From positions 1 to 33,839 of the forward strand of contig SHMW01000046.1 of NCBI GenBank assembly GCA_008080735.1: a stretch of DNA of 33,839 bases, given 5' to 3'. Below the pieces are notes generated by a model, which was not told the DNA's origin, did not search any database, and saw only the letters and a program-made list of their open reading frames with translations. Position numbers and translations under genes: made by a program. Source of the stretch: Promethearchaeota archaeon. GTDB taxonomy: Archaea > Asgardarchaeota > Lokiarchaeia > Sigyniarchaeales > SOKP01. Below, piece after piece: positions 1,735 to 19,161 of this stretch (position 1 is its first letter; every line of letters starts with the position of its first letter).

Positions 1735-2592
1735 CTAAACATTATTCTTTAAATTTGCCTTTTTCAAAAGTTTAATAATATACTCTAAGCCCCGATAAGA
1801 ATTTTCCAGATATTCAATCAAGGTTGGATAATTCATCCTTGCATGAAATGTACCTTCTCCCAAGTTAGATATCAAATATTGCATAAAATCCATCCGAAGT
1901 GTATGAAATTCAATTCGAAATTGATTTGTGCGACGATAAAGTATGCATTCTCTTAAAATTTCCAATATTTTCTTTTTAATTATACCTTCCTTTACAAACC
2001 GATTAAGTTGCTTAGCTATCGTTCGAATTGAAGTAGAAGTAAAATTTTGTTCAAAAAAAACAGATAAATAAAAACAGAACTTAAATACCGCTTTTGTTAA
2101 TGCATGTTTACTTATTTCCATATTTTTTTCTCGATATTCCGCTCTATAACTTTGATCTAAATGATACAGACTTCTTTTCAAAATATCATCGAACTCAAAT
2201 TGCAGATCTGAACGTTTAGGAAGATCACTTCTAATATCCTTTCCATATAATAATACTGAATTTTGTGGGTATTTTAAATCCAGAATACTCCACGCATAGT
2301 TTGAAAACGATTCCCGACTAAACAAATCCTTATTGAGCAAGCTCCTCAGAGAATTATATCCAATCCATATATTAAAGCCATCACTTTGTCTTTTTTCAAA
2401 TTTAGCTGTGGTCCAATCTTTTTTTGGGAGCGTTTCAACTGAATTCAAAATCACCACAATATCAATATCCTTTTTTATCCAATCCCCTGGTAGTGTTTTA
2501 TCAAAAAAACTACCAATACCAAAAATAGAAACTATATTTTCATCAAACCGAATCCTGAAATCTTTAATTAAAGAATCTATTAAGGGTTTCAC
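1735..2592 (-). CDS. Pol-beta-superfamily nucleotidyltransferase domain protein with a helical C-terminal region
   Basis: IFGIGSFF...KKDIDIVVIL matches the hG[GS]x9-13DxD signature. AGGAG-type RBS before the GTG. Confidence 0.7.
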   Translation of the reverse strand: MKPLIDSLIKDFRIRFDENIVSIFGIGSFFDKTLPGDWIKKDIDIVVILNSVETLPKKDWTTAKFEKRQSDGFNIWIGYNSLRSLLNKDLFSRESFSNYAWSILDLKYPQNSVLLYGKDIRSDLPKRSDLQFEFDDILKRSLYHLDQSYRAEYREKNMEISKHALTKAVFKFCFYLSVFFEQNFTSTSIRTIAKQLNRFVKEGIIKKKILEILRECILYRRTNQFRIEFHTLRMDFMQYLISNLGEGTFHARMNYPTLIEYLENSYRGLEYIIKLLKKANLKNNV

Positions 2593-3421: not shown

Positions 3422-5956
3422 TTAACCTATCTTTTCCAGCATTTCTGTTAGTAGATTTGGAATTTCCATAATATTCATAATGTGAACAATTTCTCCCTTG
3501 GTGGTTTCTAATATCCATTTTGCATAATTTTTAGAGTATGATCGCGTATTAACACCCAAAAGGAATTGGACTCTTTGATTAACATACTCTTCGAGTTCCT
3601 TCTTAATCATTTCCTCACCTTCTGCAAATTGACAATCTGTTAGAAGAAAGCAAATTTTTCGTTCCGTACGGGTTTTTTCCAATTCTTTTGCGCCCCATTC
3701 TAGAGCTGCTTGGACTTGAGTTCCACCTCTCGCTTTTAGATCAAGTAACTCGTTTGCCACATTTTCCAAATCGCGCGTATCACCGAATTCCTTTACTATG
3801 TGAGTGTTTGATTCAAAAAAGCAGATTGCTACTTCATCTGCTCGTAGACTTCCAATTAATACCATAACAGCTATTGAACATGCTGCAAGTTTCATCCCAC
3901 CCATAGAACCAGATATATCAAGTAAAAAGCAAATTGATACTCTTCCTTTTTCAGTTCTACTAACCAGAAGGTCTTCAGAGGTAATCATCTCTGCTGATTT
4001 ACCTTGCATAATTATATTTTCGATTGTTGCATCAATATCAATCAAATCTATATCATCACCAATAATAAAAGGGCGCAGTTGTGTTGTTGGGATTAGCCCT
4101 TTTTCACCGGATCCCCGTTGATTTGATATAATATTCATCGCAATTTTAATTAACGCATCTTTACATAGATTTTTAACGAAATCCTTTAAATGACTCGGAA
4201 CTCTATTTCGATGATAAAACCATTGTAATAGCAGATTTTCTCCTGAACCCGCACTTAATGATTCTGCTACTTTTTTTTGGGCATTTTTTCCAATTTTTCC
4301 TGATGAATTAAATGCTGTTCCCATATTATAATGAGCCAAAGCGCCCATACCTTGATAATTATTAGATTTATAAGCTAGCTGCATTAGCTCGTCCATTTGG
4401 ATGGCACTTAGCTTGAGTTTCTCTATTATTTTAGTAAGTCTTTCAAAATTTCCTATATTTTGTTCATACATAGCCTTTAATAGCTTATAATTTCCCCCAA
4501 ATATTTCAATAATCGTCTCTTCTTCAATCCCCAATGTTTTACCGATTGTGATTGCATTTGATTGATCAATTGGAACCACACTAGAAACCATAGATTTTAG
4601 CACACTTTTAAATTGGTCCTTTTCATGAGTTGACTTTAACGCTTCCAAACCCACTTTTTTCGCATTTTCTATAAATGAATCATAACATGATTCGAACTTA
4701 GCCTCTGTTGAAAGATTCATCAAATCAATTGCCAAGTCTGCCAGATCATAACTAGCATGTCCGTTAGTATTTAGAAAATCATTTATTTGTTGATTAACAA
4801 ACTGGTTCAGCATATCACCCCATTCGGAAATATTTGTCTGTGCCTGATAAAGCTCTGAGAGAGAGGGAGATGGGTTATTCCTCGCCCATTCTTTAAACAA
4901 TTCATTTGTCAAATTTGAATGGAACTTATTATCTAAGCTGCGAGAAATGTCAAAGGAAGTAAAAGGATCTCTTTTGATACTATTAGAAATGACCTTATCA
5001 TGATTAAATGAAGGGATATAGTTCAAGACATCTGAGATTTCATATAAGTCCATCATATTATCCACTCTATTGACTAACTGATTTGCGAGGTTTTCTATGT
5101 CTTTTATCTGCATACCAACGTCCTTAAGATAATTTAATGCTCTTGCGCTTGTTCCCACTTCACTATTATTCATTACGTTTTGGAGAGACGGTTCAAATTG
5201 GCTCTCATTCATTAAGTATTGTGCCGTGAGAGTTATCCATGGTGTCTTAGATTGCTCTAAGATATCATCTCCCCAATTAAGATTAATGGCTGATTCTATA
5301 TCCTTGGGAGAAAGATCATTGATATCCCTTTGAATAGATTGATGACAGTTGTTTTTTAAGGTTTCCAAATTCCTTATTCCTTGCTCTAAAATATATTTAT
5401 AATCAGAGCGTTGCTCAATAATATCTAGTAAGCTTTTGTATGGCTCAACATTTAAATTTGCTTGATTGTAAAGATCGTCAACAAAATCCATAAGTCCAGT
5501 AAACTCGTCCATTGCCTGTTCAATTAACTCTTCTGTATTTAAGCTGCTTATATCAAGTTCTGCATCGAAAACATCCAATAGATCATCCATAAAGTCTGTT
5601 TTATCATAAGAGGAACTCATGTGAAGCGAAGATTTTTGCGTTCCCGATTTGGAATCTTTTTTATTTTCAAAAATAATATTAAATGCGATTTCTTGAGCAA
5701 TGGACTGGTCTTCGATGGGGGAGGTTATAACTGCAGCCCTAATAAAATCGTCTGGGATGAGATTTAGTTTACGATAATATATTGCTGTAATGAGTTTGGG
5801 AATTGCAATAGCTTGACGAGTACTTGGAATATTTTGCAGCCTTGCCTTATTCCTTCTCATTCTATAGATGAATTCAATAGCAAAGGATATTGGAGTCCAA
5901 TCTAAAACTTTGTTATTAGCATAGTCTCCAATATTTCCTATATCAATTTTTTTCAT
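3422..5956 (-). CDS. Large VWA-domain protein (CoxE/MoxR-partner type)
   Basis: C-terminal MIDAS motif DISGSM, GGT and LLTDC. Preceding 'IDIDATIE' segment is typical of MoxR-associated VWA proteins. Directly downstream of the MoxR gene, with GGAGGGAG RBS. Confidence 0.85.
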   Translation of the reverse strand: MKKIDIGNIGDYANNKVLDWTPISFAIEFIYRMRRNKARLQNIPSTRQAIAIPKLITAIYYRKLNLIPDDFIRAAVITSPIEDQSIAQEIAFNIIFENKKDSKSGTQKSSLHMSSSYDKTDFMDDLLDVFDAELDISSLNTEELIEQAMDEFTGLMDFVDDLYNQANLNVEPYKSLLDIIEQRSDYKYILEQGIRNLETLKNNCHQSIQRDINDLSPKDIESAINLNWGDDILEQSKTPWITLTAQYLMNESQFEPSLQNVMNNSEVGTSARALNYLKDVGMQIKDIENLANQLVNRVDNMMDLYEISDVLNYIPSFNHDKVISNSIKRDPFTSFDISRSLDNKFHSNLTNELFKEWARNNPSPSLSELYQAQTNISEWGDMLNQFVNQQINDFLNTNGHASYDLADLAIDLMNLSTEAKFESCYDSFIENAKKVGLEALKSTHEKDQFKSVLKSMVSSVVPIDQSNAITIGKTLGIEEETIIEIFGGNYKLLKAMYEQNIGNFERLTKIIEKLKLSAIQMDELMQLAYKSNNYQGMGALAHYNMGTAFNSSGKIGKNAQKKVAESLSAGSGENLLLQWFYHRNRVPSHLKDFVKNLCKDALIKIAMNIISNQRGSGEKGLIPTTQLRPFIIGDDIDLIDIDATIENIIMQGKSAEMITSEDLLVSRTEKGRVSICFLLDISGSMGGMKLAACSIAVMVLIGSLRADEVAICFFESNTHIVKEFGDTRDLENVANELLDLKARGGTQVQAALEWGAKELEKTRTERKICFLLTDCQFAEGEEMIKKELEEYVNQRVQFLLGVNTRSYSKNYAKWILETTKGEIVHIMNIMEIPNLLTEMLEKIG

Positions 5957-6002: not shown

Positions 6003-6914
6003 CTAACTAACACCCACTACTTTTGTTAATATTTTCTTAATAAATTGGTCTATATTCCTCCCTGGACGTAATTCTAAGGAATCTTGGAGAATTAATCTGG
6101 CTGATTCGGCGATCAATTTATTATCAACTTTCGTATTAAGCCTTTGAGCTCTCTGAGACACGAATCGAGCAAGTCCAATACTCGTACGCAAACTCGGGGG
6201 TCGTTCTACCACGGGGTCATTCCTACATTGCACCATTAACTCAATAATCTTTTCTTGGGTTAAGGCTGAAAGGTTATACTCTGGACAATTTGAGACCATA
6301 ATCTTTTGTTCTAATGATTTAGGAGGATAACCCAGATGTATCCAGACCTTGATTCTGTCCTTTATGGCTGATGGTAATTTCCTTGTGCCCTTTAATTCTG
6401 TGGGATTCATAGCTGCAATAACATAAAATTCGTCTTTTGCTCTTAACCAAGTTTTTAGTTGCGGAATGTATAGGCGTCGTTCTTCCATTGCGTCTAACAT
6501 GCTGTTTAAAACATATTCATCCCCTCTATTCAATTCATTTGCAAGAAAAATCCCTCCTTTCAATGCTGCTAAAGAAAAGGGTCCAGGTATATAGGAATCC
6601 GGAGAGAACCCAAATTTAAAAACCAGTGTAGGATCAAAAGATCCAATGAGAGTTGAGGGTCTAACTAAATCACTAAAGGTTACCCAATGGAATTCTCTAT
6701 TCATATCATATGCGAACTTACGACAAAGTGCTGTCTTTCCACATCCTACTGGTCCAACCAATCCTACAAACAATCCTGCGTTGTAGGCGTCCATCATGGC
6801 TTCATAAGCATACTTATATTGTCCCTCTAAAACCAAATTGATTTCTTCTCGAATATCCTCAATTTTGCTTTCGTCTATAAGTTTAGAAAATTCTGTTATT
6901 TCTGATTTTGCCAT
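6003..6914 (-). CDS. MoxR-family AAA+ ATPase
   Basis: Walker A GPVGCGKT, PGP, Walker B-like IFLANELNR, sensor I AAMNP, LPSAIKDR Arg finger, PSLR sensor II. Start is ATG 6914 or GTG 6926. Confidence 0.88.
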   Translation of the reverse strand: MAKSEITEFSKLIDESKIEDIREEINLVLEGQYKYAYEAMMDAYNAGLFVGLVGPVGCGKTALCRKFAYDMNREFHWVTFSDLVRPSTLIGSFDPTLVFKFGFSPDSYIPGPFSLAALKGGIFLANELNRGDEYVLNSMLDAMEERRLYIPQLKTWLRAKDEFYVIAAMNPTELKGTRKLPSAIKDRIKVWIHLGYPPKSLEQKIMVSNCPEYNLSALTQEKIIELMVQCRNDPVVERPPSLRTSIGLARFVSQRAQRLNTKVDNKLIAESARLILQDSLELRPGRNIDQFIKKILTKVVGVS

Positions 6915-6976
6915 TTTGATTTTCACGTAAATATGGTATTTTTTTAAAATTTTATTTTAATTTTTTTAAAAATCGA

Positions 6977-7501
6977 TTAATCGTTAAAAAACTTCTCTGT
7001 TTCTGTAGGTTGCACTACTATGGGTACCTCATATTTCAATTTCTTTATTGCTTTAACGATTTTCTCATATTCTTCTTCCTCTAACACTTTCCTTCTAGAG
7101 TAATCTAATTTATCCATAATGAATTTACCAAAGTAAGTATTTTTCAGGTCTTCAATATAATACTTCTTTCCCTTTTTTTCAACTTGCGAATTTTTCAATT
7201 CTTTTATTCGCTTTAATAATATCAGTTTAGCGAGAGGTTTCCACTTATTATCCTTTTTTAAAGTATTAATTTCGAAATCCCGATGATTTATCACATCCTC
7301 TTTTACTAAATATGTAATTTCTTTCAGCAAATTAATAAAAAACTGTCTTTTGAAATTTTCGACCGAAATTAAATGTTTGAATTGATTATTTAGGTTGGTA
7401 AACAACTTTTCTATTTCCTCATGCTTTTGAACGGAGAAAAATCTATAAAATTCGTCTTTTATTGCTCCAACAATCGAATCATTTTGATTTATATCTTCTA
7501 T
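6977..7501 (-). CDS. Hypothetical protein (~174 aa; probable ATA start)
   Basis: The ORF is open 32 codons upstream of the TTG at 7405, back to ATA at 7501. That ATA lies 6 nt after AGGTG and 12 nt after the Rad50-like stop. No recognisable motif. Confidence 0.65.
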   Translation of the reverse strand: MEDINQNDSIVGAIKDEFYRFFSVQKHEEIEKLFTNLNNQFKHLISVENFKRQFFINLLKEITYLVKEDVINHRDFEINTLKKDNKWKPLAKLILLKRIKELKNSQVEKKGKKYYIEDLKNTYFGKFIMDKLDYSRRKVLEEEEYEKIVKAIKKLKYEVPIVVQPTETEKFFND

Positions 7502-7513
7502 TTTTCACACCTT

Positions 7514-10030
7514 TCATTTTTTTAATTCAATTCTATTATCACATACAATTTTATCTACATCTTGATGAGTTATTAAGAGCACTTGAGTTTTCTCAGCTAT
7601 AGAACAAATATTGGATAAGAGACTTTCTCTGGTATATGCGTCTATAAATTCCGTGGGTTCATCTATAAGCAAGAAGGGTGCTTGACTGATTAGCTCACTA
7701 AGAGAAAACTTATATGAGAGTCCCAAAAGTAATTTATAACCCCCTCCTTCATAAACCCATGCCGGGAAAGATTCTGTTATATCAATACCCTTTGGTGTAA
7801 TTGATAAACTATAGTCTTCATTGTCTATATGAATTTTTTCAAATTCGTCTTCGGGTGATAATAGTTGCTGATATTCCAAAATTTTCTCCTCTAATGCTGT
7901 TGAAACTCCATCTCGTATGATTTGTTGAGTTTCTTTAAAAATTTCTTGAAAATTTCTATATTTTTCACTTAAATCTTTTTTTATCTTGAGAATAGAGACT
8001 TTCTTCTCATTATTAGCAATATTCCTATCCAGCCTTTTGATTTGTTCTTTAATTTCTTCTAAATCGTCAATTATTTGTAGCCGTTGATCTTCCAAGTGTT
8101 TTAAATTCGATGAAATCTCTGATAATTTTGAGATTATTAATTCATTGAAATGATTTTGTAATTTTTTGGCTGAATTAAGCGTTTTTTCCACTTTAAAAAT
8201 TTGTATTTGATCTATTAACTTTTTCAATGATTGAGAGAACGGATCTTCTTTTTCTAAAAGACTTGAATATTTCTCAAGCTTATTGCCGGTTGTTCCTAGT
8301 AATGTTAAAAATTTCTCGTTTAAATCAGCATATTGTTTCTGTTGCTTCGATCGCTGCTCCTCAATTATCTTCAATTTTTCCTTTTGTTTTTTATATTGCT
8401 TATTAATGGAATCTAATTCAGCTAATTTTTTCGTGCTATTTTCCAAGTCTTCCTTTAATTTTTTTAAATTTTCATTTTTTTCATCGAGCTCTTTTGCCAA
8501 TTTATTGATCTTTTGTTCAAGATTCTTAATTTCCTTCCCTAAATCTTTTTCAGATAAGGAAGCCGCTTTTTCTTCGGTTTCGTTGACTTTCTTTAATGTA
8601 TTTTTCAATCGTAGGATTTCTTGATAACAAGTTTTTTCTTCTTCCCTTATGTACTCTATATTATTTACCAGACTATCTTTTTTTTGTTCATTCTCTCCTA
8701 TCTCCTTTGTTATTTCTTTTAATTTTGACTTACAATCCAATATCTCTGATTTAATCTTTTCAGAATCGATAGAAGAGCCACAATATTCACATTTTTGATT
8801 ATCTTTATTTGATTTCCGTCTTTCCAGAATCCCTTTAATGTTCCCCCTTTTTCTTTCGATAGTTCTGAAAAAGTTTTGTATCTCTGTTAGCTTATTTTCC
8901 ATTAAACTTAATTTTTTTTTAATTTCTCCATTCTCATCCTCAAAATCTTTAATTTTTTCCTTGAGCTTTTCCTTAGATCCAAAATCTTTAATTAAAGAAT
9001 CTAAATCCTCTAAAAATCCATCCCTCTGGTTTTTAAGAGTTTTCAACTCAACTTTTTTATTTTCAGCCCGATTTATTTCTTCTTGAAGATTTGAACTTTC
9101 TTTTTCTCTATTTTTAATTGTTTCATTGAATTGATTTACCATATCTTTTTGCTCTATTAAATCCTTTTTAAATGCCTCAAAAGTTTCAAACTTAGTTTCA
9201 AGTTCTTCTAAATCTTTATTAATAAGCTCTATTTTAATATCTGATTCCTTTACGACTTTTTCCGTCTTTTCTAAGGATTTTACATTTTCAGAAATTTTTT
9301 CAGAATATTCTTTAAAATCCTCCAATTGGTGCAAAATGCTTTTTTGATTCTTGATTTCAGACTCAAGGGTTATTTGTTTATTATGTTTTGTATCTAACTT
9401 ATCATGGTATTCTTTTTTTTCTGTTCTTGCTTGACTAATCAGTTCTTCGAAAGTATCAAGCATCTTTACTTCCTTTTCAAATTCAAGTGCTCGATGCCTA
9501 AAAATGTTTGAAAGAGCAGTAGCCGTCTTTATACCGAAAACAATATCTAATTTCTCATCCCCTTTTAATATATTGGAAATATCCCCTTGAGCGAAATGAA
9601 CTCCTGTCTCAAAAAACCGTTTTGAAATTCCCAGTATCTCCAATAATTTCAGAGATAACTCTTCTTCACGATTTCCAAAATCAGAGGCTAAGATGTATTT
9701 TTCCTTATCTTCCATCATTTTTTTTAAGGTGAAATTTCCTTCAGCAGATCGGCTTTTTCCCTTTAATCTATGCATTCTTTGAATTTTATATTTTTCCCCA
9801 TCCTTTCCTTTAAAAATAAGTTCCACTCCGACGATATTTTCCTTAAATCCGGCTAATTGAGCGATTTTTTTAAACCCCCCAACATTTCCAAATAAGCAAT
9901 ATTCTATAGCATAGAAGATAGTGGTTTTTCCTGAGTTATTTCTTCCATGCAATAAATTAAATTTTGAATCTAATTGGAGAGCCAAATCTTTATGCTTTCT
10001 AAAATTCTTAAGCCTTATTGATTCAATCAT
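7514..10030 (-). CDS. Second Rad50/SbcC-like SMC ATPase with a degenerate ABC signature
   Basis: Walker A GRNNSGKTT, Q-loop FAQGD, long coiled coil, central CEYC hook (~aa 414), signature region YEGGGYK, Walker B LLIDEPT, H-loop ITHQ. Confidence 0.88.
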   Translation of the reverse strand: MIESIRLKNFRKHKDLALQLDSKFNLLHGRNNSGKTTIFYAIEYCLFGNVGGFKKIAQLAGFKENIVGVELIFKGKDGEKYKIQRMHRLKGKSRSAEGNFTLKKMMEDKEKYILASDFGNREEELSLKLLEILGISKRFFETGVHFAQGDISNILKGDEKLDIVFGIKTATALSNIFRHRALEFEKEVKMLDTFEELISQARTEKKEYHDKLDTKHNKQITLESEIKNQKSILHQLEDFKEYSEKISENVKSLEKTEKVVKESDIKIELINKDLEELETKFETFEAFKKDLIEQKDMVNQFNETIKNREKESSNLQEEINRAENKKVELKTLKNQRDGFLEDLDSLIKDFGSKEKLKEKIKDFEDENGEIKKKLSLMENKLTEIQNFFRTIERKRGNIKGILERRKSNKDNQKCEYCGSSIDSEKIKSEILDCKSKLKEITKEIGENEQKKDSLVNNIEYIREEEKTCYQEILRLKNTLKKVNETEEKAASLSEKDLGKEIKNLEQKINKLAKELDEKNENLKKLKEDLENSTKKLAELDSINKQYKKQKEKLKIIEEQRSKQQKQYADLNEKFLTLLGTTGNKLEKYSSLLEKEDPFSQSLKKLIDQIQIFKVEKTLNSAKKLQNHFNELIISKLSEISSNLKHLEDQRLQIIDDLEEIKEQIKRLDRNIANNEKKVSILKIKKDLSEKYRNFQEIFKETQQIIRDGVSTALEEKILEYQQLLSPEDEFEKIHIDNEDYSLSITPKGIDITESFPAWVYEGGGYKLLLGLSYKFSLSELISQAPFLLIDEPTEFIDAYTRESLLSNICSIAEKTQVLLITHQDVDKIVCDNRIELKK

Positions 10031-10033
10031 CCT

Positions 10034-10270
10034 TTACTCCTCCATCTCATCTATCGAAGATAATTCTTTTATCTCCATCTCAAACATCTCTATAATCTTT
10101 TCTTCTAATTTCTCTTTACTATTTTTACGAAGTTTAAATGTCTTTGTAAGATTGTCCTCATCATCGTACAAATAATTCGTAAACTCAAATAAGGAGATTA
10201 GATTTTCTTTTTCTCGCTTACTAAGTTCAAATTTATCGAGAATATTTGAAATATTAAATTGAAATTTCAT
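10034..10270 (-). CDS. Small acidic helical hypothetical protein (78 aa)
   Basis: ATG-started ORF between the two Rad50 genes. It ends 3 nt before the second Rad50 ATG, with GGAGGAG embedded in its last codons. Confidence 0.7.
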   Translation of the reverse strand: MKFQFNISNILDKFELSKREKENLISLFEFTNYLYDDEDNLTKTFKLRKNSKEKLEEKIIEMFEMEIKELSSIDEMEE

Positions 10271-10334
10271 TTTGTTTAGTTATTCTTTTTTTTTGTCTTC
10301 TTTTGATATATTATAATTTAACATTTTTAAAATC

Positions 10335-13046
10335 TCAGATATTTGTTAAATAATTTACTTGGGTCCTTTCTTTATTATCCTTTGAGAGCTTTATCACATA
10401 CTCGCTATGACGTTTGAAGGAATCATCATGGGAAATGACAAATAGTTGGCTAAACCCTTCAATATTATTAATGTATTTACTAAGATTATTCCTGGCAATT
10501 TCGTCTAGATTTGTGGTCGGTTCGTCGAATATCGCAAATTTAGCAGAGGTTAATGTCTTTAAAATCGCCAGTCTTATAGCCAATGCAGCGGCCATCTTCT
10601 CTCCTCCTGATAAGCGAATAAATCTTTTAGCACTTCGCGACCTTCTGATTTCAATTTCGTAATCCTCATTCCAAATAAGAGAGCTATTTTGATCTCCGCG
10701 AATATCCCGATAGATTTGACTTGCATATCTGTTAACTTTCTGAATTAATTCTAAACGTATTTTTGGCTTGAATTCCTTCAGCCAAGTTCTCATCTTACTA
10801 ACAAGTTTTTTTTCAGCTCTAAGTTTAAAATCCTGCTTTTTGAAATCATCCAATTCTTTTTCTTTTGACTCCAAATTGCTAATATCTTCATTTATCTCAT
10901 CTAATCGAGCTTGTAGATTTCGTAAATTTTCATTAAATTTAATAATCAATTTCTCATTCTCTTCATACTCTGTCTTAACTTGATGATATTTATCCTCATC
11001 AAATTCTGATTTTAATTTTTCTTTTTCTTGTAATTTTTCCAGATGATGATTTTTCAACTCATCTAATTTTGCTCTTGATGATTTTAAATTCTGTTTTCTC
11101 GTTTCTAATTTATTTGCTTCATTTATGTTCTTTTGGTATTTATTATAAGCGTCCTCTGATTCATTAATCTTTTTGCGGACTTTTGCCAATTGAGCTGGCA
11201 CTTCATTATATTTCTCTATCTCATTTCTGATATTTACTTCCCGAGTTTTTAATAGGGATAATTCTTTCTTCAATGGCCCTACTTTTTCTTGAAGATCATG
11301 AAGTTTCTTTGCATTTTCTTTATTAATTAGATATTCATCATGATAAGATTTTAGTGTCTTTTTCTCAGACTCTAATTCTTTTCTCAACTTGATAAACTCT
11401 GTTTTATGAGAGATTTTTGATTTCAATTCAGATATTTCAATTTTAATATTACTGATTTGCTTTTCAACCTCTTCACTCTTAGCTTTACCTTTTGTTAATT
11501 CATCGAGTTGGTTCTTTATATTACTTTTTTCTTTTAGCTTATCATTAACTTCATCAAGATTTAATTTTTTAGATTTCAATAACTTTTTTTTATGTTTTAT
11601 CTCTGTTTCGAAAATCCCGATATCAAAATCTCCCGCTTGAATATTTTTGCAGACCTGATCTGTAAATGGACATAGCTGTTTTTTGACTTTATTTTGATTA
11701 TTTTGAAAGAAAGAGATATCATTTTTTATTATTGATATATCTAGCCTAATGTTTTCTCGATTTTCTTCAAGCGTTTTAAATTCTTCTAACATTTTCTTGA
11801 TTTTAGGTAAATCATTAGCTTTCTCTTGTAAGTTTTGAAGTTTTTTGGTTAATTCTTTTAACCTCTCAGTGTTTCTATTTAGTCTTTCTTCTTCAGACCT
11901 AATCATGGTAATTTTTTCGTTTATTTCTTTTAGATCTTCATCTAAATGTATATATTTTTGATATTTTGGTTCAATTTCTCCGATTTTTTCAACTGAAATT
12001 TTCGATTCATTGATTTTCTCTTCCAAATTGCTAAGCGTATTGAAAATTGATTGATACTTTCGATGTGCTTCATTGAGCTTATCTTTTAATTCATTTAATT
12101 TATCATTTTTGGGGATTAAATCATTTCTTAAATTGGTTAAAATTATATATTCATTATAGGCTTGTTTTGTTTTTAAGCAAATTTTATTTGCATATTTTGA
12201 CTCATGCAACTGTTTTTGGAGGTTTTCGTAAGATAGTTCAGCATTTTTTCTTTCTATCTCTAGTTGTCTACAATTATTCTCAAGTGCCTCTAACTTCTCT
12301 TTTAATTTAATGAGTTCGTGTAATTTTTCTTCTTTCTTTTCTTTAATTTTTCGGCATTTGTGTATTTCTGAGGATATTTTAGATATGTCTTCATCAAGGT
12401 TTTTTTTTGACGAAAGCAGATTCTCTTTATTCTTAGTCTCTCCAATTAAACCGCTAATCCTTTTCTGAATTTCGACTATTTCTTCTCTGTATTTTCGATT
12501 AATAACACCCAAATTTTCCCAATATTTCTCATATATATCTAATTGGAAAATTTCATCGAAATATTCTTTTCTTTCTTTTGGACTTCGTAAAAATATATTT
12601 ACAATCATTCCTTGAGGAATACCTATTGCGGTATTAAAAAGGGTTTCAAGATTAATATCAAATTTGACACCAAGCTGCTTTTTAATCCACGACCTAAATT
12701 TAGAAATCGTATCTATTGGAGGAGAGAGTGGTTTCCCATTCTGATCACATACCTCAATTTCAGTTCTTCCAATATCTCGCGAAATTTTATAGATCTTCTT
12801 ATCTGTTCCATTTATCCACACCCGTGCTGTGCCATATTTTGGTTTTTCGTTTTCGAAATCTCTCACATAATCTGCTTGATAGGTCTTAGATTTAAGGAAA
12901 TCAAATAAGACAAATCCAATCATTTCAAGAACTGTTGATTTCCCCGCTCCGTTATTTCCATAAAGGATATTCAATCCCTCTTTAAATGATATGGCGGTTT
13001 TTTTATGTGTTTTTACATTTTCAATCTCGATTTTTTTAATAAACAT
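10335..13046 (-). CDS. rad50: Rad50/SbcC DNA double-strand break repair ATPase
   Basis: Walker A GNNGAGKST, Q-loop IPQG, coiled coil, central CPFTDQVC, signature LSGGE, FDEPT, ISHD. ATG 13046 follows a GAGGTG RBS. Adjacent to mre11. Confidence 0.9.
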   Translation of the reverse strand: MFIKKIEIENVKTHKKTAISFKEGLNILYGNNGAGKSTVLEMIGFVLFDFLKSKTYQADYVRDFENEKPKYGTARVWINGTDKKIYKISRDIGRTEIEVCDQNGKPLSPPIDTISKFRSWIKKQLGVKFDINLETLFNTAIGIPQGMIVNIFLRSPKERKEYFDEIFQLDIYEKYWENLGVINRKYREEIVEIQKRISGLIGETKNKENLLSSKKNLDEDISKISSEIHKCRKIKEKKEEKLHELIKLKEKLEALENNCRQLEIERKNAELSYENLQKQLHESKYANKICLKTKQAYNEYIILTNLRNDLIPKNDKLNELKDKLNEAHRKYQSIFNTLSNLEEKINESKISVEKIGEIEPKYQKYIHLDEDLKEINEKITMIRSEEERLNRNTERLKELTKKLQNLQEKANDLPKIKKMLEEFKTLEENRENIRLDISIIKNDISFFQNNQNKVKKQLCPFTDQVCKNIQAGDFDIGIFETEIKHKKKLLKSKKLNLDEVNDKLKEKSNIKNQLDELTKGKAKSEEVEKQISNIKIEISELKSKISHKTEFIKLRKELESEKKTLKSYHDEYLINKENAKKLHDLQEKVGPLKKELSLLKTREVNIRNEIEKYNEVPAQLAKVRKKINESEDAYNKYQKNINEANKLETRKQNLKSSRAKLDELKNHHLEKLQEKEKLKSEFDEDKYHQVKTEYEENEKLIIKFNENLRNLQARLDEINEDISNLESKEKELDDFKKQDFKLRAEKKLVSKMRTWLKEFKPKIRLELIQKVNRYASQIYRDIRGDQNSSLIWNEDYEIEIRRSRSAKRFIRLSGGEKMAAALAIRLAILKTLTSAKFAIFDEPTTNLDEIARNNLSKYINNIEGFSQLFVISHDDSFKRHSEYVIKLSKDNKERTQVNYLTNI

Positions 13047-13056
13047 TATTTCCACC

Positions 13057-14640
13057 TCATAAATCTAATTCACCATCATCGATTATATCATCGATATCTA
13101 AATCATCATCTTCAATATTTAAAATCTCTTTAAATTCTCCGAACTCTTCTGCGAAATCATTCTCATCCCATATCTTATCTATACTAACTTGTTTCGCTTG
13201 TTGTTTCTTTTTATTTCTTTTTTTCATTTGATTTTGTTTTTTAGGTTTCTTTTCGAGTCTGACAATATCCTCAACTTTCTCTAAAATTTCAGGATTCAGT
13301 TCAAACCAGTTATCTAATTCTTTTTTAACAATAATATGATCTGCGGTTTTCGTGAGCTTGTTTTTCAGTTGATTAAGTAATAAGTTAGCAATCTCATTTT
13401 TATGAGCTTTGAAATTTTCTTCCTCTTCTATCGTTGCTAATAAGGCCTCCTCTTCGATCCGTTCAAAACTCCATGATTCATCCACTTCGAGATTATATTC
13501 AGTTTTAGAAAAAACGTGATTGTTTAATTTTAATCCCAAGATATAGAATGTATCAAAAATTAAATTTCTCAGTTCTTTTAAATCAATTTCTAATTCTGAA
13601 TAAGAAATCCTTCCTTTAATTGTTATATATAGAATAGGTACATCCAAATTGGTTAAAGATAAGTTCGTATTATTTCTCTCAGGTACTCCTAATTTTCTGA
13701 GTTTTGTTATCACCATATTTTGTGCTTCTTCAAAAGATTTGGACTCTGAAATGTCGATAGGGTTAAAGGACAAGAATTTTCTATTGGGAATATTGAGAGG
13801 ATCATTGGTATTTCCATTTTCAGATGTTAGAGATTTTACTTGAAAATTATTATTCTCTTCTGGAAAGATATCAACCAAAAATATCCCGCGCTTTTCATTA
13901 TATTCCGTTATCTCATTTATTTCAAGACTACCAGGGTTAAAGATCCATGGGTCCTTCTCAGGCAATTGGTATTGATTATGAAAATGCCCCAGAGCTAAAT
14001 AATCTACGTGTTTATGTAATTCTTTTAGTTCTTTATTTATATCATAGCCTTTTTTTCTCTTATCATAACCTTGGATGCCGAAATGCATCAAAAGTATTAT
14101 AAATTTGTCATTTTTAGGGATTTCCTTCCTTATAAGAGAAAATAATCCCGGAGTAGAGCTTCCAAAGTAGCTCATACCGTATATTACGGAATCTTTGATT
14201 GTTATTTTGCCTCCTTTATGCTCTCTGTAAGAATAATCATTAAAGATAACCCTTTTCGAATCGCTAATAAATTGTCCAGAGAGTAATATAATCAAATTTA
14301 AATCTGCTAAAAGTTCCAACCACGTACGGTCCGAAAAGAATGGAGTCTCATGATTTCCTTCGATGCAAATGATTGGAATTTTGAATCCTAATTCTTCCTC
14401 AGATTTTGACTGAAAGTCTTGTATATTAGTTATTATCTTACTCAAGGTCGATGGATTTATTTTCTGTTCACTATCGATGAAATCTCCGCAAATGAGGACA
14501 AAATCTACTTTTTCGTATATCGCTTTATTTAATAGCCATTCAAAGGCTTTAAAAAAATCTTCATATCTCTGTGGTATACCATACAGTGTTTTTCCTAAAT
14601 GCAAGTCCGCGGTATGAATAAATCGGATTTTATCTTTCAT
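13057..14640 (-). CDS. mre11: Mre11/SbcD metallophosphoesterase nuclease
   Basis: Motifs ADLHLG, CGD, EGNHE, MHFG, LGHFH and NPGSLE. Upstream of rad50. Basic-then-acidic C-terminal tail. Confidence 0.92.
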   Translation of the reverse strand: MKDKIRFIHTADLHLGKTLYGIPQRYEDFFKAFEWLLNKAIYEKVDFVLICGDFIDSEQKINPSTLSKIITNIQDFQSKSEEELGFKIPIICIEGNHETPFFSDRTWLELLADLNLIILLSGQFISDSKRVIFNDYSYREHKGGKITIKDSVIYGMSYFGSSTPGLFSLIRKEIPKNDKFIILLMHFGIQGYDKRKKGYDINKELKELHKHVDYLALGHFHNQYQLPEKDPWIFNPGSLEINEITEYNEKRGIFLVDIFPEENNNFQVKSLTSENGNTNDPLNIPNRKFLSFNPIDISESKSFEEAQNMVITKLRKLGVPERNNTNLSLTNLDVPILYITIKGRISYSELEIDLKELRNLIFDTFYILGLKLNNHVFSKTEYNLEVDESWSFERIEEEALLATIEEEENFKAHKNEIANLLLNQLKNKLTKTADHIIVKKELDNWFELNPEILEKVEDIVRLEKKPKKQNQMKKRNKKKQQAKQVSIDKIWDENDFAEEFGEFKEILNIEDDDLDIDDIIDDGELDL

Positions 14641-14673
14641 ATAATGTTCACTTTTTATTTAGACTCTTCATAT

Positions 14674-17600
14674 TTATTTATATCTAAATCTGACTTTGTA
14701 AAACTTTTCATCCTCTTCACTTTCGATGTTAAGCATAATTTCATTCTTACAATATTCTTTTACAAATCTATAAATTTTTGAGGATTCTTCTAGAATTTCT
14801 CTCTCGTCTGGGATATATTCAACAAACTTGTCACTAGAGACAAATATAAGCTTACTTTTTGCCCTGGAAGTTAATACATTAAATCGATTCAAGTTATATA
14901 TGAACTCATCTTCCATTTGGAGTTTATCCTCATCAGATAATCCAATTGAACATATTATAAGGTCCCTATCAGATCCCTGGAATTTTTCAACCGAATACAC
15001 CGATTCTTTTAAATGTTGCATTAATTGAGATTTAGGAAGGGTTGTAATTATTTCAAATAATTGAAAAATATTTCTGATGACGGTTCGACCTTGAGCGTTA
15101 TGTGGAGCGACCACCCCAACCTTTTCATTCCAAAATCGTTTCTCCTCAGTCTCGTTTTTAGGATTCACCATTAAATAGAATCCCTTTATGATTTCTGCTA
15201 CGATTTGAGCTTCTAAAAGGCTAATACCTATCTCAAATCTTTGCTGATGAATTATTGCGCATGCTACTCTTTGAGGTTCTAAAACCTCCCTAACCCACGA
15301 TTTTTTTATTTTTTCTAAATTTCCCCTTAAAATCCTATTAGCATTCTTTTTATATGCAATTATATTCTCATAAAGACCTAGTTGGGAGGTAAATTCTACA
15401 ATATCTCTATGTGAACGGTAATTTACCTTTAATTGTCTCTTTGAAATATTATGTCCTTCCACATAATATCTAAAAATATTGTCTAAAATCGTTTCCAGAT
15501 TTTTGGGAGGCTTTTTGACTCTGACGGGGGGTAATTGATTGTGATCTCCTACTACAATCACTTTTGTAAGAGAATCTGAGGTTATAGCACTATTTTGCGC
15601 CATTAAATTTTTTACTTCATTCTTAGTCCTTATGAATTGTTTTGGAACCATTAATTCAGGTTTTTTTATTGAGATTTTGGGTTTTTTAATGAATTGCAGA
15701 CTCGACATAAAATAATCTGCGGGTAATTGGCTTGCTTCATCAACACATATTAAATCAAAGCAAAAATTTTCGGAGACTCTACTTGTTAGATGATATAATT
15801 GATGAGCGTTTGCGAAAATAATGAAATTATCTTCTAAAGATTCTTCCAATAGGATAGTTTCCGTTACTGTTCTGGTCTTACCATTCAATTTCCAAGTTTG
15901 TCCGTCTTTCATCAAATCATCAACATTTCTCAAATATCGTTCATTAGGAATGGGATTTTGGGTTCTAGAATGAAAGAAGATCTTCTGAACTTCAGATGAG
16001 GGGGTGGGATTTCCCGAATGGTCTTTACTCTTCCTGATTTTATCAATAATAACTCTTAGAGCAGTATAAGAAAAGGATGTTATCAAAATTTTTGAGTCTT
16101 TATTCTTTCGGGTACGTCTAATAATAAATTCATCAATCAATGCCGCAATGGTTTGAGACTTCCCGGTTCCCGGGGGTCCCAATATAGCAGATATGGTTTT
16201 ACTTAACGAATTAATTATGGCTTCTTTTTGAGAAATATCAGGTGTAGGGTTGATTTGTGAGTATATAGTTTGATTTGAAAGTGCTTTATCATAATATCTC
16301 AAAACCTTTGGAGCAAAAAGATAAATTGAAGGGGTCGAAAAATTCCAATGCTCAGGCCATTTTAATTTAGGTTTATTCCGAATATCCCATAAAAATGCTA
16401 AACGCTCTCCTAACCATGATCGCCCGAAATTATGTCTCTGAAGTAGAGCTGAATGATTATTGTTATATAATTTATTTGACCATGCATCTGAGCTGAAATG
16501 ATATATATACCACGTTTCCGCATTAAAATCTATACTCTCTTCTTCACATGCGTCAAAAACATTATTCGTACTTGGTTTAGTGGTTATATAATGTCCCTTT
16601 ATTTTAGAATTCCATTCTATTGTTTCAATGTCGATAATCCATTTATACACTCTCTTATCCAGTTTTAATCCTCTTTTAGAATTCGGTATCAACAAAACGC
16701 GATCGCCTTCCTTAAGTTTCATATTGCTTGATAACCCCATAAGAAAAAAGGTATATTGTAATGACTTTCCTTGAAGATCTATAATGTTTAAATCACTGAC
16801 TCTTGCGGAAAATAATTTTCCAATACTGAAATCTGGGAACATTGTTCTATAATACTCATCATCTTGCTGTTGGAGAGCAGTATCGAGTCTCGAAAATAAA
16901 TACCATACATGGGCAATATCATGAAATTCAGAAGGTAATATCGCACTTTTATAATCGTGTCGACTAATAGTCCGAGCATTTTCCGATATTGCAAGATTTC
17001 CCTCTTTCTGGAATTGCGCTCGAATACTATCAATAATATGTAATTTGAAGATGATTTGGTGCTTTATGATATTCATTTTTTTCTTTTTTTTGTTTGGATC
17101 TATTTCCCTTAGATATAGTAGCCACGAGGAGAGATCTAAGTAGTTAAAATGTGGAATCCAGTACATTTTTGTATTTATCTCTAAGTTTTTGAATAATTTC
17201 TTGGCAATACCGTGCCATGTATAATTGATTATATCTGGAAATCCCAAACATGACTCTGCGAAACTTTGTATATCAAAAAGTTTCTTATGCTGATAAGGAT
17301 TGCTCACTTCTGTATCTGAGGGTGTAAAATACATCAAGATTTCTTCATATGCGCCTCTCACAAGAGGCTCACTAATGACCTTATTTAAGTTCCTCTGAAT
17401 CATGTCTTGAAGATGTTCGAGCTGATTTCGTGACCAATAGAAAATCCCTGTGTCTGGTCCAATGTAGTACGTTCCATATTTACCGGTTATATCAATAACA
17501 ATATAATCTTCAATAATGTTGCACATTTGTAAAATCCAGTTTAATTTGAGGATTGTTTTAATTGTAAGAATAGCTTCACTTTCAGCGGTTATATCCTTAT

Positions 17601-19161
17601 TTACACTTGCAAATCTGTACATTATACTTGTTCCAGCTAGCGTTTTTTCCCCCTTTAAAGATATTTCGATTTTTTCTAAATTTTTCAAACAATTTAGGAA
17701 AAGAGCTACATGTACCAATGATATTTCTCTCACTAGATAATCATTTAATTCTTTTTGAATTTCTTCTGAGGTCTTCTCCCCTTCCAATGCGTTTTTCCAA
17801 ATTCTCCACCAATTATCAAAAATTCCATGATATTTTAGTTTAGATGGGATAAACATTTTCAAAAGAATTCCAACAGCAAAAATCCGGTCAGTATTTCTGT
17901 CATACTCGACATCAAAATTGATGGAAATAGGAGAATATCTAGGAATTGAATAAGAATAAGTTTGGTGGTTTTTAGGGTAAATTATTCGTTTATTCTTTAT
18001 AGCTCGGGTTTTTAATTTCATAGTAGGTAATTCAGAATATAGAGGTTTGGGAATAGCCCCTACTTTGATTTGATTAATTTTTTTTAAAAGATCACCTATA
18101 TTCTGTATATTTAATTCATTTTTCAGTTGTTGAGCAATCGATTTTGATGTAAAGGGAATTAAATCTATGGCCCAATTTTCTGGGTGTTCTTTATCCTTCA
18201 TACCAAGTGTTTCTTTACAATCTTCTATGAACTGACAATAACCGCAGCCATCATGGATATTAGTTTTTACTTGCGAAATTTGGCAGGGCGCTTTTTTCCA
18301 TAATTCCCTTATAACTCCAACAACACTGCTATAAATTCTTTGCGATTCTTTCCAGCTAATAAAACTAACTAACCCATTATCAAATAAATCGTAAATAGAA
18401 TTTAGTAAATTATATTTATCTTTTTTCCTCAAGGGTAAAATGCCATTATAATTCGCTCTCACATAAAATGTTTTATCCAACCCTAATTCTTTTAGAAAAT
18501 ATGCCAAGGTTCTAAGATAATAAAAAATCTCTAAAAAATGTTTTTTTCCCACATTCTCTTCATTGGTATATTTAATATCAAAAACCGAAATTCCTATTCG
18601 TGCATTTTCCTTCTCTTTTGAAATTAGTTGAATGTTTCCACCAGCATTAATCTCATAAATTTTATCCATATATTTATTAAGTCCATTACCGAGAAATATA
18701 AGATCTGGTCTCTGAGAAGAATAATTCACAGGAACATCATTATTTTTTGCCTTTGGATAAAAAATTTCATAAAAAAATGATTTTGGAATTTTAAATTGGT
18801 GTTCTAATAATAAGCAGAGTGAAGGGGCATTTTCGCCTACAAATTTATCAGCTATTTCATTCAAAATTTTAACACTTAATTTTACTCTCCCGATTATTTC
18901 ATTTCCTGACTCATCTTTAGAAGATTTAAATTCAACATTTTCTAAGTTTTTCAGATATGAATACACAATCTGCTCATATTCCTTCCCCTTTTCTTTTAAG
19001 TATTTAGTTTGAAATATCAATCGCTCGGGAGGAGTAGATGGTATCGGTCTAACGGGATCAAACCATACATCTGGTGAATCTCTACCTAATTCTAAAAATA
19101 ATCTTCTCTTACAGTTGGTTAAAATATAACTCTGAAGTAAAGTCTTATTAAATTTACCCAT
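14674..19161 (-). CDS. DNA2/Upf1-like SF1B helicase fused to an N-terminal RecB/Cas4-like Fe-S PD-(D/E)XK nuclease and an RNase H-like middle domain (TM0106-like architecture)
   Basis: N-terminal CKRR, RPDLI, FDIKY and CGYCQFIEDC. Middle FDVEYD. Helicase motifs GPPGTGKS, DEASQ, GDHNQLPP, NYRSH, VAPHNAQ, SVEKFQGSDRD and NRFNVLTSRAK. Confidence 0.88.
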   Translation of the reverse strand: MGKFNKTLLQSYILTNCKRRLFLELGRDSPDVWFDPVRPIPSTPPERLIFQTKYLKEKGKEYEQIVYSYLKNLENVEFKSSKDESGNEIIGRVKLSVKILNEIADKFVGENAPSLCLLLEHQFKIPKSFFYEIFYPKAKNNDVPVNYSSQRPDLIFLGNGLNKYMDKIYEINAGGNIQLISKEKENARIGISVFDIKYTNEENVGKKHFLEIFYYLRTLAYFLKELGLDKTFYVRANYNGILPLRKKDKYNLLNSIYDLFDNGLVSFISWKESQRIYSSVVGVIRELWKKAPCQISQVKTNIHDGCGYCQFIEDCKETLGMKDKEHPENWAIDLIPFTSKSIAQQLKNELNIQNIGDLLKKINQIKVGAIPKPLYSELPTMKLKTRAIKNKRIIYPKNHQTYSYSIPRYSPISINFDVEYDRNTDRIFAVGILLKMFIPSKLKYHGIFDNWWRIWKNALEGEKTSEEIQKELNDYLVREISLVHVALFLNCLKNLEKIEISLKGEKTLAGTSIMYRFASVNKDITAESEAILTIKTILKLNWILQMCNIIEDYIVIDITGKYGTYYIGPDTGIFYWSRNQLEHLQDMIQRNLNKVISEPLVRGAYEEILMYFTPSDTEVSNPYQHKKLFDIQSFAESCLGFPDIINYTWHGIAKKLFKNLEINTKMYWIPHFNYLDLSSWLLYLREIDPNKKKKKMNIIKHQIIFKLHIIDSIRAQFQKEGNLAISENARTISRHDYKSAILPSEFHDIAHVWYLFSRLDTALQQQDDEYYRTMFPDFSIGKLFSARVSDLNIIDLQGKSLQYTFFLMGLSSNMKLKEGDRVLLIPNSKRGLKLDKRVYKWIIDIETIEWNSKIKGHYITTKPSTNNVFDACEEESIDFNAETWYIYHFSSDAWSNKLYNNNHSALLQRHNFGRSWLGERLAFLWDIRNKPKLKWPEHWNFSTPSIYLFAPKVLRYYDKALSNQTIYSQINPTPDISQKEAIINSLSKTISAILGPPGTGKSQTIAALIDEFIIRRTRKNKDSKILITSFSYTALRVIIDKIRKSKDHSGNPTPSSEVQKIFFHSRTQNPIPNERYLRNVDDLMKDGQTWKLNGKTRTVTETILLEESLEDNFIIFANAHQLYHLTSRVSENFCFDLICVDEASQLPADYFMSSLQFIKKPKISIKKPELMVPKQFIRTKNEVKNLMAQNSAITSDSLTKVIVVGDHNQLPPVRVKKPPKNLETILDNIFRYYVEGHNISKRQLKVNYRSHRDIVEFTSQLGLYENIIAYKKNANRILRGNLEKIKKSWVREVLEPQRVACAIIHQQRFEIGISLLEAQIVAEIIKGFYLMVNPKNETEEKRFWNEKVGVVAPHNAQGRTVIRNIFQLFEIITTLPKSQLMQHLKESVYSVEKFQGSDRDLIICSIGLSDEDKLQMEDEFIYNLNRFNVLTSRAKSKLIFVSSDKFVEYIPDEREILEESSKIYRFVKEYCKNEIMLNIESEEDEKFYKVRFRYK

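Follow-up and report, generated by a model that had tools for sequence, protein, structure and literature searches.

The question raised by contig SHMW01000046.1 of a Promethearchaeota archaeon (Lokiarchaeia; GenBank assembly GCA_008080735.1) is whether a tightly packed block of genes for a helicase-nuclease, Mre11, two Rad50-like ATPases and two small proteins encodes one DNA end-processing or defence system, as a preliminary description had proposed. The stretch analysed, referred to as the window, is 33,839 nucleotides (nt) long. The six open reading frames of the block lie at positions 6977-19161, all on the minus strand, and the domain calls made for them, namely a superfamily 1B (SF1B) helicase (AAA_11/12), a Metallophos/Mre11 protein and two Rad50/SbcC-type ATPases, stand. 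The gaps of 33, 10, 64, 3 and 12 nt reported between them are correct, given an ATG start at 13046 for rad50A and an ATA start at 7501 for the gene of a 174-amino acid (aa) protein. The same-strand run consists of eight genes, with genes for a MoxR-type ATPase and a von Willebrand factor A (vWA) domain protein extending the block after gaps of ~50 and 46 nt, and is flanked in the window by metabolic and transport genes. The nuclease-helicase, mre11 and rad50A genes are designated M1, and the genes for a 78-aa protein, Rad50B, the 174-aa protein, MoxR and the vWA protein are designated M2. The locus is very probably a junction of these two self-contained cassettes, which are often neighbours, and not one six-gene system.

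Distribution and synteny of M1 and M2

The cassettes were traced in 61 genomes, that of the window and 60 relatives, using a threshold of E < 1e-45 for rad50A-type matches. A search of contigs with a single Rad50B protein matched nothing, and alignment queries were required. Matches to rad50A were found in 29/61 genomes and matches to rad50B in 8/61, and 21 of the 29 rad50A genomes have no detected rad50B. The gene for the 174-aa protein occurs in the same eight genomes as rad50B, each time directly after it. In every M2 locus, the 78-aa gene is directly upstream of rad50B, which is also accompanied by moxR and, following moxR, the vWA gene. All five M2 genes are intact in 8/8 carriers, where they are joined to M1 in five and located elsewhere in three. 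The complete genome of Ca. Lokiarchaeum ossiferum has the two cassettes 3.4 Mb from each other, M1 lying at 1.16 Mb and M2 at 4.58 Mb. M1 is followed by unrelated genes in 16 loci fetched for synteny mapping, and is present in P. syntrophicum MK-D1 and H. repetitus, neither of which gave a rad50B match.

Beyond this sample, M2 was found in 10/301 Asgard genomes, including Thorarchaeia and Kariarchaeota, in both of which the gene order is kept, and other Asgard families. Neither rad50A nor the helicase was found in three M2 genomes (two Thorarchaeia and one other Asgard; 80, 81 and 99% complete). A MoxR-seeded search of bacteria revealed the five genes in order in 19 loci, mostly from Myxococcota and Planctomycetota, and the fetched flanks of the bacterial loci included no Mre11, helicase or rad50A match. 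The preliminary description had let its proposal depend on synteny of rad50B and the small genes with mre11, rad50A and the helicase in related genomes, and this check goes largely against it: the two sets of genes are not tied to each other, and a single six-gene unit is ruled out by the arrangement across relatives.

Three layouts were seen in which M1 and M2 adjoin each other: M1 precedes M2 in the window, four relatives and loci L363 and L364; M2 precedes M1 in L366 and L367; and the two are convergent in L144 and L227. In none of them is M1 interrupted by M2 genes. The clade in which M1 and M2 are joined forms one branch in the tree of rad50A and likewise in that of rad50B, indicating that the joined layout arose once. 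The repeated adjacency suggests a shared DNA-end pathway or a shuffled DNA-end island, and is no proof of one complex. In L144 and L364, a trio of genes ending in an ATP-dependent ligase-like gene lies between or beside M1 and M2. This putative trio, whose ligase gene is like those of non-homologous end joining, is seen beside a rad50A or vWA gene at L144 2840-5719, L364 14218-17848, L247, L256 and L089, and was not found in the window's genome. Another genome of the same genus (G003) includes a decayed M2 (L148 11224-14464), in which moxR is N-terminally truncated, the vWA gene is intact and the three upstream genes are gone. A 285-aa gene downstream of the block in the window (1735-2592) has a 39% identical homologue in L366 and L367, where it precedes M2 by a few genes. 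Promoter and terminator scans of the locus gave results at chance level with a model that is bacterial.

The nuclease-helicase and Mre11-Rad50A of M1

The first gene of M1 (14674-19161, minus strand) encodes a 1495-aa nuclease-helicase, identified by AAA_11/12 matches, conserved residues and a structural model. Residues C17, C306, C309, C315, P152-D153, D195-x-K197 and Y215 are invariant in 54 relatives. The four cysteines are arranged in a 1+3 iron-staple pattern around PD and DxK nuclease motifs, from which an iron-sulphur (Fe-S) cluster is predicted; this signature has been reported for AddB, Dna2, Cas4 and Bad (PMC7430649). The C-terminal portion is an SF1B helicase with the full motif set, and between nuclease and helicase lies an RNase H-like region in which the first acidic residue of the motif is not conserved.

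A model of residues 1-954 (predicted local distance difference test, pLDDT, 90.8) matched TM0106/RNase_H_2 clusters over 420-490 residues with template modelling (TM) scores of 0.74-0.81 by target, as compared with 0.58-0.65 for RecB-nuclease/helicase fusions and a weak match to Dna2 (Foldseek E 0.079, TM 0.13). An NCBIfam search with residues 1-954 gave no match and did not reach the cut-off for TM0106 (TIGR03491), the likeness being structural. Dna2 is, for the helicase part, the best sequence match in the PDB (E 6e-15, residues 1197-1450). As modelled, the enzyme is thus TM0106/Bad-like in architecture, and not Dna2. Like Bad and the TM0106-family fusions, it combines a four-cysteine iron-staple RecB-family nuclease with a C-terminal SF1B helicase, but it differs from them in being coupled to mre11-rad50. 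Bad is a 5'-3' helicase and single-stranded DNA endonuclease (PMC7430649). The presence of an iron-staple nuclease and SF1B motor beside Mre11-Rad50 also recalls eukaryotic Dna2 with MRN/MRX; however, the helicase core alone matches Dna2, and the N-terminal 954 residues carry a TM0106-type insertion.

The nuclease-helicase family is compact, with 153 representatives that fall below every named hidden Markov model (HMM) cut-off. Members are also solitary in other Asgard groups or occur as paralogues; stand-alone paralogues of 1470-1620 aa with no mre11 beside them were seen in Lokiarchaeia and other Asgard archaea (L105, L106, L107, L320, L322-L324 and L308-L310). A distant bacterial relative (E 2e-4; L318 8001-12359) is located beside a type I restriction system, a methylase and an integrase.

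The second gene (13057-14640, minus strand) encodes a 527-aa Mre11/SbcD nuclease, which matches Metallophos with an E value of 1e-17 and Mre11 models with an E value of 8e-27, below their cut-off. The metal-binding motifs are kept in 12 orthologues. Hence, as in SbcCD/Mre11-Rad50 systems, a metallophosphoesterase gene, here for an intact Mre11, directly precedes the gene for a canonical SMC-like ATPase, and M1 belongs to this group. The window's genome has a further, stand-alone Mre11-like gene (388 aa; contig C10 51205-52371), 33% identical to the window Mre11 and with no rad50 beside it.

Rad50A (10335-13046, minus strand; 903 aa from the ATG) has Walker A, Q-loop, LSGG signature (canonical LSGGE), Walker B, H-loop and a cysteine hook. 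The preliminary description had called for phylogenies of the two ATPases, and these placed Rad50A inside bacterial SbcC and Rad50B in a clade of its own, in a head-domain tree of 82 sequences that did not include LmuB. Rad50A of Lokiarchaeia (support 100/99) nests among SbcC of Chloroflexota, Acidobacteriota and Melainabacteria, most of which share its CP-x5-C hook. Approximately unbiased (AU) tests, for which the rows were subsampled to 43 and SMC and one long-branch Rad50 were omitted, rejected a grouping of Rad50A with archaeal Rad50 (p=0.0019) and with Rad50B (p=0.0023). Thus, as judged from its sequence, Rad50A is a horizontally acquired bacterial-type SbcC outside the archaeal Rad50 clade. 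An origin of Rad50A and Rad50B by duplication in place was considered and is rejected by the AU test. The bacterial relatives of rad50A have SbcD beside them and no nuclease-helicase, so the coupling of this enzyme to mre11-rad50A looks Lokiarchaeial.

It had further been proposed that a Dna2-like enzyme replaces HerA/NurA in this operon. An iron-staple nuclease with an SF1B helicase does occupy the slot usually held by herA/nurA, and neither gene is present in the window. However, the enzyme is of the TM0106/Bad-like type, and NurA is kept in 57/61 genomes. M1 is also distinguished from archaeal herA-nurA-mre11-rad50 operons by its bacterial-type Rad50A with a CP-x5-C hook and by the large nuclease-helicase gene that leads it. 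In one genome (G051, L103) the helicase, herA, mre11, rad50A and nurA form a single run, one of four rad50A-type operons seen to contain or precede nurA and herA (with L307 of G053, L345 and L346).

A separate canonical operon, for which the preliminary description had advised a check, is present in the window's genome: nurA-herA-mre11-rad50 was found on contigs C58 (22318-27438) and C117 (1-1596; L296, L297). The operon lies at contig ends, has a GC content of 41-44% as compared with 33.6% for the genome, and has a close match in 1/60 relatives (G056, of another family). Given the deviant GC content and this rarity, it is a recent horizontal import or a binning artefact. The same features, with the position at contig ends, weaken the argument that a canonical operon makes M1 redundant. 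A herA-mre11-rad50 operon of another type (Rad50 of ~700 aa) is found in many family-level relatives, some of which also have M1. Many relatives have operons that combine herA, a nurA-like gene and mre11 with the gene for a short Rad50 (~630-710 aa), in at least two gene orders (L330 9185-15350, L368 4018-10380, L327-L343 and L370-L372); no operon of this kind was found in the genome of the window. M1 is the only mre11-rad50 pair found by the queries in the complete genomes of MK-D1, H. repetitus and L. ossiferum, which favours a repair role for it.

Rad50B and the MoxR-vWA module of M2

Rad50B (7514-10030, minus strand) is a zinc-hook SbcC-like ATPase of 838 aa, assigned by its motifs and its own clade. 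This clade (100/100), which includes the M2 proteins of Myxococcota and Planctomycetota, is separate, and its placement is uncertain owing to a branch of 2.65. All 37 sequences compared retain the Walker A, Q-loop, CxxC hook, Walker B and H-loop unchanged. The signature is (Q/E)GGG instead of LSGG, with Ser replaced by Gly in 34/34 heads. In ABC ATPases, loss of the signature serine, which contacts ATP, should weaken or alter head engagement, and the same should apply to Rad50B by analogy. No Mre11 match was found beside rad50B outside the clade in which M1 and M2 are joined, so that Rad50B differs from SbcCD in the lack of both a nuclease partner gene and the signature serine. The Rad50A/Rad50B heterodimer raised in the preliminary description is unlikely, since the two belong to separate families, each of which is found without the other.

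The 78-aa protein (10034-10270, minus strand) is helical, gave no family match in searches, and was assigned by synteny and a complex model. Its model with full-length Rad50B scored 0.71, as compared with 0.00 for the best of three controls; the mark that this score passes is reached by 58/80 solved complexes and 2/110 mismatched pairs. The runs share 94% of contacts, and the pLDDT of the partner is 79. The predicted interface is formed by Rad50B residues 159-180 and 676-712, in the coiled coil beside the head. As Mre11 contacts Rad50 through a helix-loop-helix close to the ATPase domains (PMC7752040), the 78-aa protein is predicted to dock at Mre11's own site on the head-proximal coiled coil.

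No ATG, GTG or TTG is present near the start of the third M2 gene (6977-7501, minus strand; 174 aa). An ATA at 7501 lies just downstream of a Shine-Dalgarno-like GGTG, and two other strains have ATA-GAA at the equivalent position while a third has TTG-GAA, making ATA the probable start. A homopolymer frameshift was dropped as an explanation, since another strain has identical bases there and the position of the ATA is conserved. Profile comparison, HMM search and alignment revealed that the 174-aa protein shares homology with the final ~120 residues of the ~785-aa product of the third gene in a paralogous moxR-vWA operon on contig C27 (hhalign 94.5-95.3%, E 2e-8 to 7e-8; HMM E 2e-10 in its own proteome), which ties it to MoxR-vWA and not to Mre11. 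Its C-terminal tail, P-x-x-x-x-P-T-x-T-E-x-F-F, is conserved, and its model (pLDDT 87.6) gave no clear match in the PDB. The N-terminus of the ~785-aa protein includes a SWIM-like H-x-C...C-x-H motif by eye, for which there was no HMM match.

The paralogous moxR-vWA operons of the window's genome (C27 23916-29712 and C28 37468-43682; L311, L312) have no SMC-like gene. In both, the product of the third gene is ~790 aa with a SWIM-like start, and in the C27 type its C-terminal end is the 174-aa domain. Sister-type operons in Heimdall-, Hermod- and Jordarchaeal genomes (L205 6891, L209 6745 and L211 2541) have an upstream gene of 350-400 aa that contains the 174-aa domain, and no Rad50B.

The MoxR-type AAA+ ATPase (6003-6926, minus strand) was identified by AAA_5/AAA_3 and GvpN models, and is 55-90% identical between Asgard and bacterial copies of M2. 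All three MoxR paralogues of the window's genome have N instead of D in Walker B (LANE). The last gene (3422-5956, minus strand) encodes an 844-aa protein with an intact DxSxS metal ion-dependent adhesion site (MIDAS; VWA_2 E 1e-12). Its vWA domain is at the C-terminus (residues 675-844) with nothing after it, and is preceded by a ~650-aa N-terminal part.

M2 resembles several known systems in part. Like Lamassu (LmuABC), it has an SbcC-like protein without a nuclease partner. The small upstream protein recalls long LmuC in its position and in its predicted placement at the SbcD-binding site, but the small proteins of M2 match no LmuC model. In contrast to Lamassu, M2 has no LmuA effector and includes MoxR-vWA. 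The match of Rad50B to LmuB is partial (107 bits, residues 2-297), as is that of Rad50A. No PADLOC or Pfam match to an LmuA-type effector (Cap4, Mrr, protease, Sir2 or similar) was found in the 78-aa, 174-aa or vWA proteins. A PADLOC run, another of the checks suggested earlier, returned partial ATPase and helicase matches, none for Mre11, the small proteins or vWA, and no complete system.

With RavA-ViaA, NorQ-NorD and the ternary conflict systems, M2 shares a MoxR gene followed by a vWA gene with MIDAS and a conserved third gene before them. The ternary conflict systems have the order third gene-MoxR-vWA and, like M2, occur in myxobacteria and planctomycetes (PMC7159879). However, by Pfam matches above cut-off the third gene of M2 is not VMAP, iSTAND, FtsH or a beta-propeller, and no C-terminal vWA effector is present; the paper describing these systems does not mention SMC, Rad50 or SbcC (PMC7159879). 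ASRP (ClsN/Sph) and arcadin-4 are comparable in that Rad50B is an extra archaeal zinc-hook SMC-like protein without Mre11, but Rad50B scores 67.5 bits with the ASRP model (cut-off 300) and 56.9 with that of arcadin-4 (cut-off 860), and is common in bacteria (19 complete loci).

Proposed roles and alternatives

The activities of both cassettes are proposed here from gene content and motifs. The best explanation overall, and a fairly probable one, is a DNA-end cassette, M1, beside a nuclease-free machine, M2. M1 would itself probably be a resection or repair operon, in which the bacterial-type Mre11-Rad50A senses and nicks DNA ends, and the TM0106/Bad-like Fe-S nuclease with its 5'-3' SF1B motor extends resection, a task performed by HerA-NurA elsewhere. 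More tentatively, M2 may be a MoxR-remodelled DNA clamp. Rad50B would most likely pair with itself through the zinc hook and clamp DNA, its ATPase cycle being weakened; the 78-aa protein would take the site where Mre11 would bind, and the 174-aa protein would bridge the Rad50B complex to the vWA adaptor, with MoxR spending ATP to load, release or remodel the complex. The cassettes are repeatedly neighbours in Lokiarchaeia, probably since both act on DNA ends. Of the two options in the preliminary description, the second, with a co-opted SbcC-derived sensor, comes nearest to this reading in joining an SbcC-like ATPase to small proteins; the ATPase is, however, partnered by a MoxR/vWA motor and not by a Lamassu effector.

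Several points weigh against this explanation. M1 may be accessory, given that it is patchy and that many relatives have the other herA-mre11-rad50 operon. That Rad50B binds DNA is an assumption based on its family, and clients of known MoxR-vWA systems are often metabolic enzymes. The complex score may reflect memory of solved Mre11-Rad50 complexes, and a profile comparison of the 78-aa family with the window Mre11 gave no similarity. Finally, linkage exceeds that expected for fully independent cassettes, as M1 is present in 8/8 sampled Promethearchaeales genomes with M2; the probability of this co-occurrence by chance is nominally 0.003, and ~0.07 with four independent lineages.

The last point is also what would be expected if M1 and M2 were one DNA-break machine in Lokiarchaeia, with M2 tethering ends or stripping Mre11-Rad50A via MoxR, and a Rad50A/Rad50B heterodimer as a special case. 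The three arrangements in which the cassettes adjoin, and the putative ligase trio clustering there, are consistent with such a machine. However, it is quite improbable, given that M2 is never interleaved with M1, is found without detected M1 in Thorarchaeia and without nearby Mre11 in bacteria, and is missing from 21 sampled M1 genomes. The hooks also differ (CP-x5-C and CxxC), the two ATPases come from distant families, and the 78-aa protein apparently occupies the Mre11 site of Rad50B. Less improbable, though still unlikely, is that M2 is an anti-virus or anti-plasmid system derived from SbcCD in parallel with Lamassu, in which Rad50B would sense foreign DNA ends and MoxR/vWA would set the level at which an effector, concealed in the 174-aa protein or in the N-terminal ~650 aa of the vWA protein, is triggered. 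A defence role would fit the patchy occurrence of M2 across domains, its variable flanks, the decayed copy, and its transfer across domains with a host range common to the ternary conflict systems (PMC7159879). Yet no effector domain was found in any M2 member, and the content of M2 is constant and its MoxR conserved across domains, whereas ternary conflict systems show effector swapping (PMC7159879). Moreover, 20 sampled M2 neighbours were varied and mostly housekeeping, with four bacterial ones conflict-like (HipA, STAND, SUKH and A2M), and a rad50B search of plasmids and viral contigs gave short Walker A matches and nothing more.

It is very unlikely that M2 is unrelated to DNA, with MoxR/vWA chaperoning some metabolic or structural client and Rad50B repurposed as a coiled-coil scaffold like arcadin-4 or Sph. 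The loss of the signature serine, the paralogous moxR-vWA operons without an SMC-like gene, and the precedent of arcadin-4, proposed to derive from Rad50 (PMC9389158), agree with such a role, but the other ATPase motifs and the zinc hook of Rad50B are invariant, and in Lokiarchaeia M2 is repeatedly found in clusters with DNA-end genes.

M1 represents a new form of SbcCD/Mre11-Rad50, and M2 is apparently an undescribed pairing of an SbcC-like ATPase with a MoxR-vWA motor; literature searches, mostly outside subscription journals, found no description of M1 or M2 and no SMC/Rad50-family protein coupled to a MoxR-vWA motor. It is possible, if rather doubtful, that M2 represents a new class of SMC-like machine: a descendant of SbcC without a nuclease, with a stand-alone Mre11/SbcD-like docking protein, a weakened signature and loading or release by MoxR-vWA, which in Lokiarchaeia joins M1, and sometimes a ligase module, as a DNA-end island among the closest relatives of eukaryotes. 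With the same gene order in myxobacteria and Asgard archaea, the five-gene M2 would add to Lamassu another way in which the SbcCD scaffold acquired a new output. M1 bears on the question, considered open in a 2026 review (PMC13748450), of how resection moved from HerA-NurA to Exo1/Dna2-type enzymes, as Mre11-Rad50 is paired with a predicted Fe-S nuclease-helicase in Lokiarchaeia, among them two cultured species, P. syntrophicum and L. ossiferum. The parts of M1 seem to be borrowed or convergent and not ancestors of MRN-Dna2, a caution that is useful in itself.

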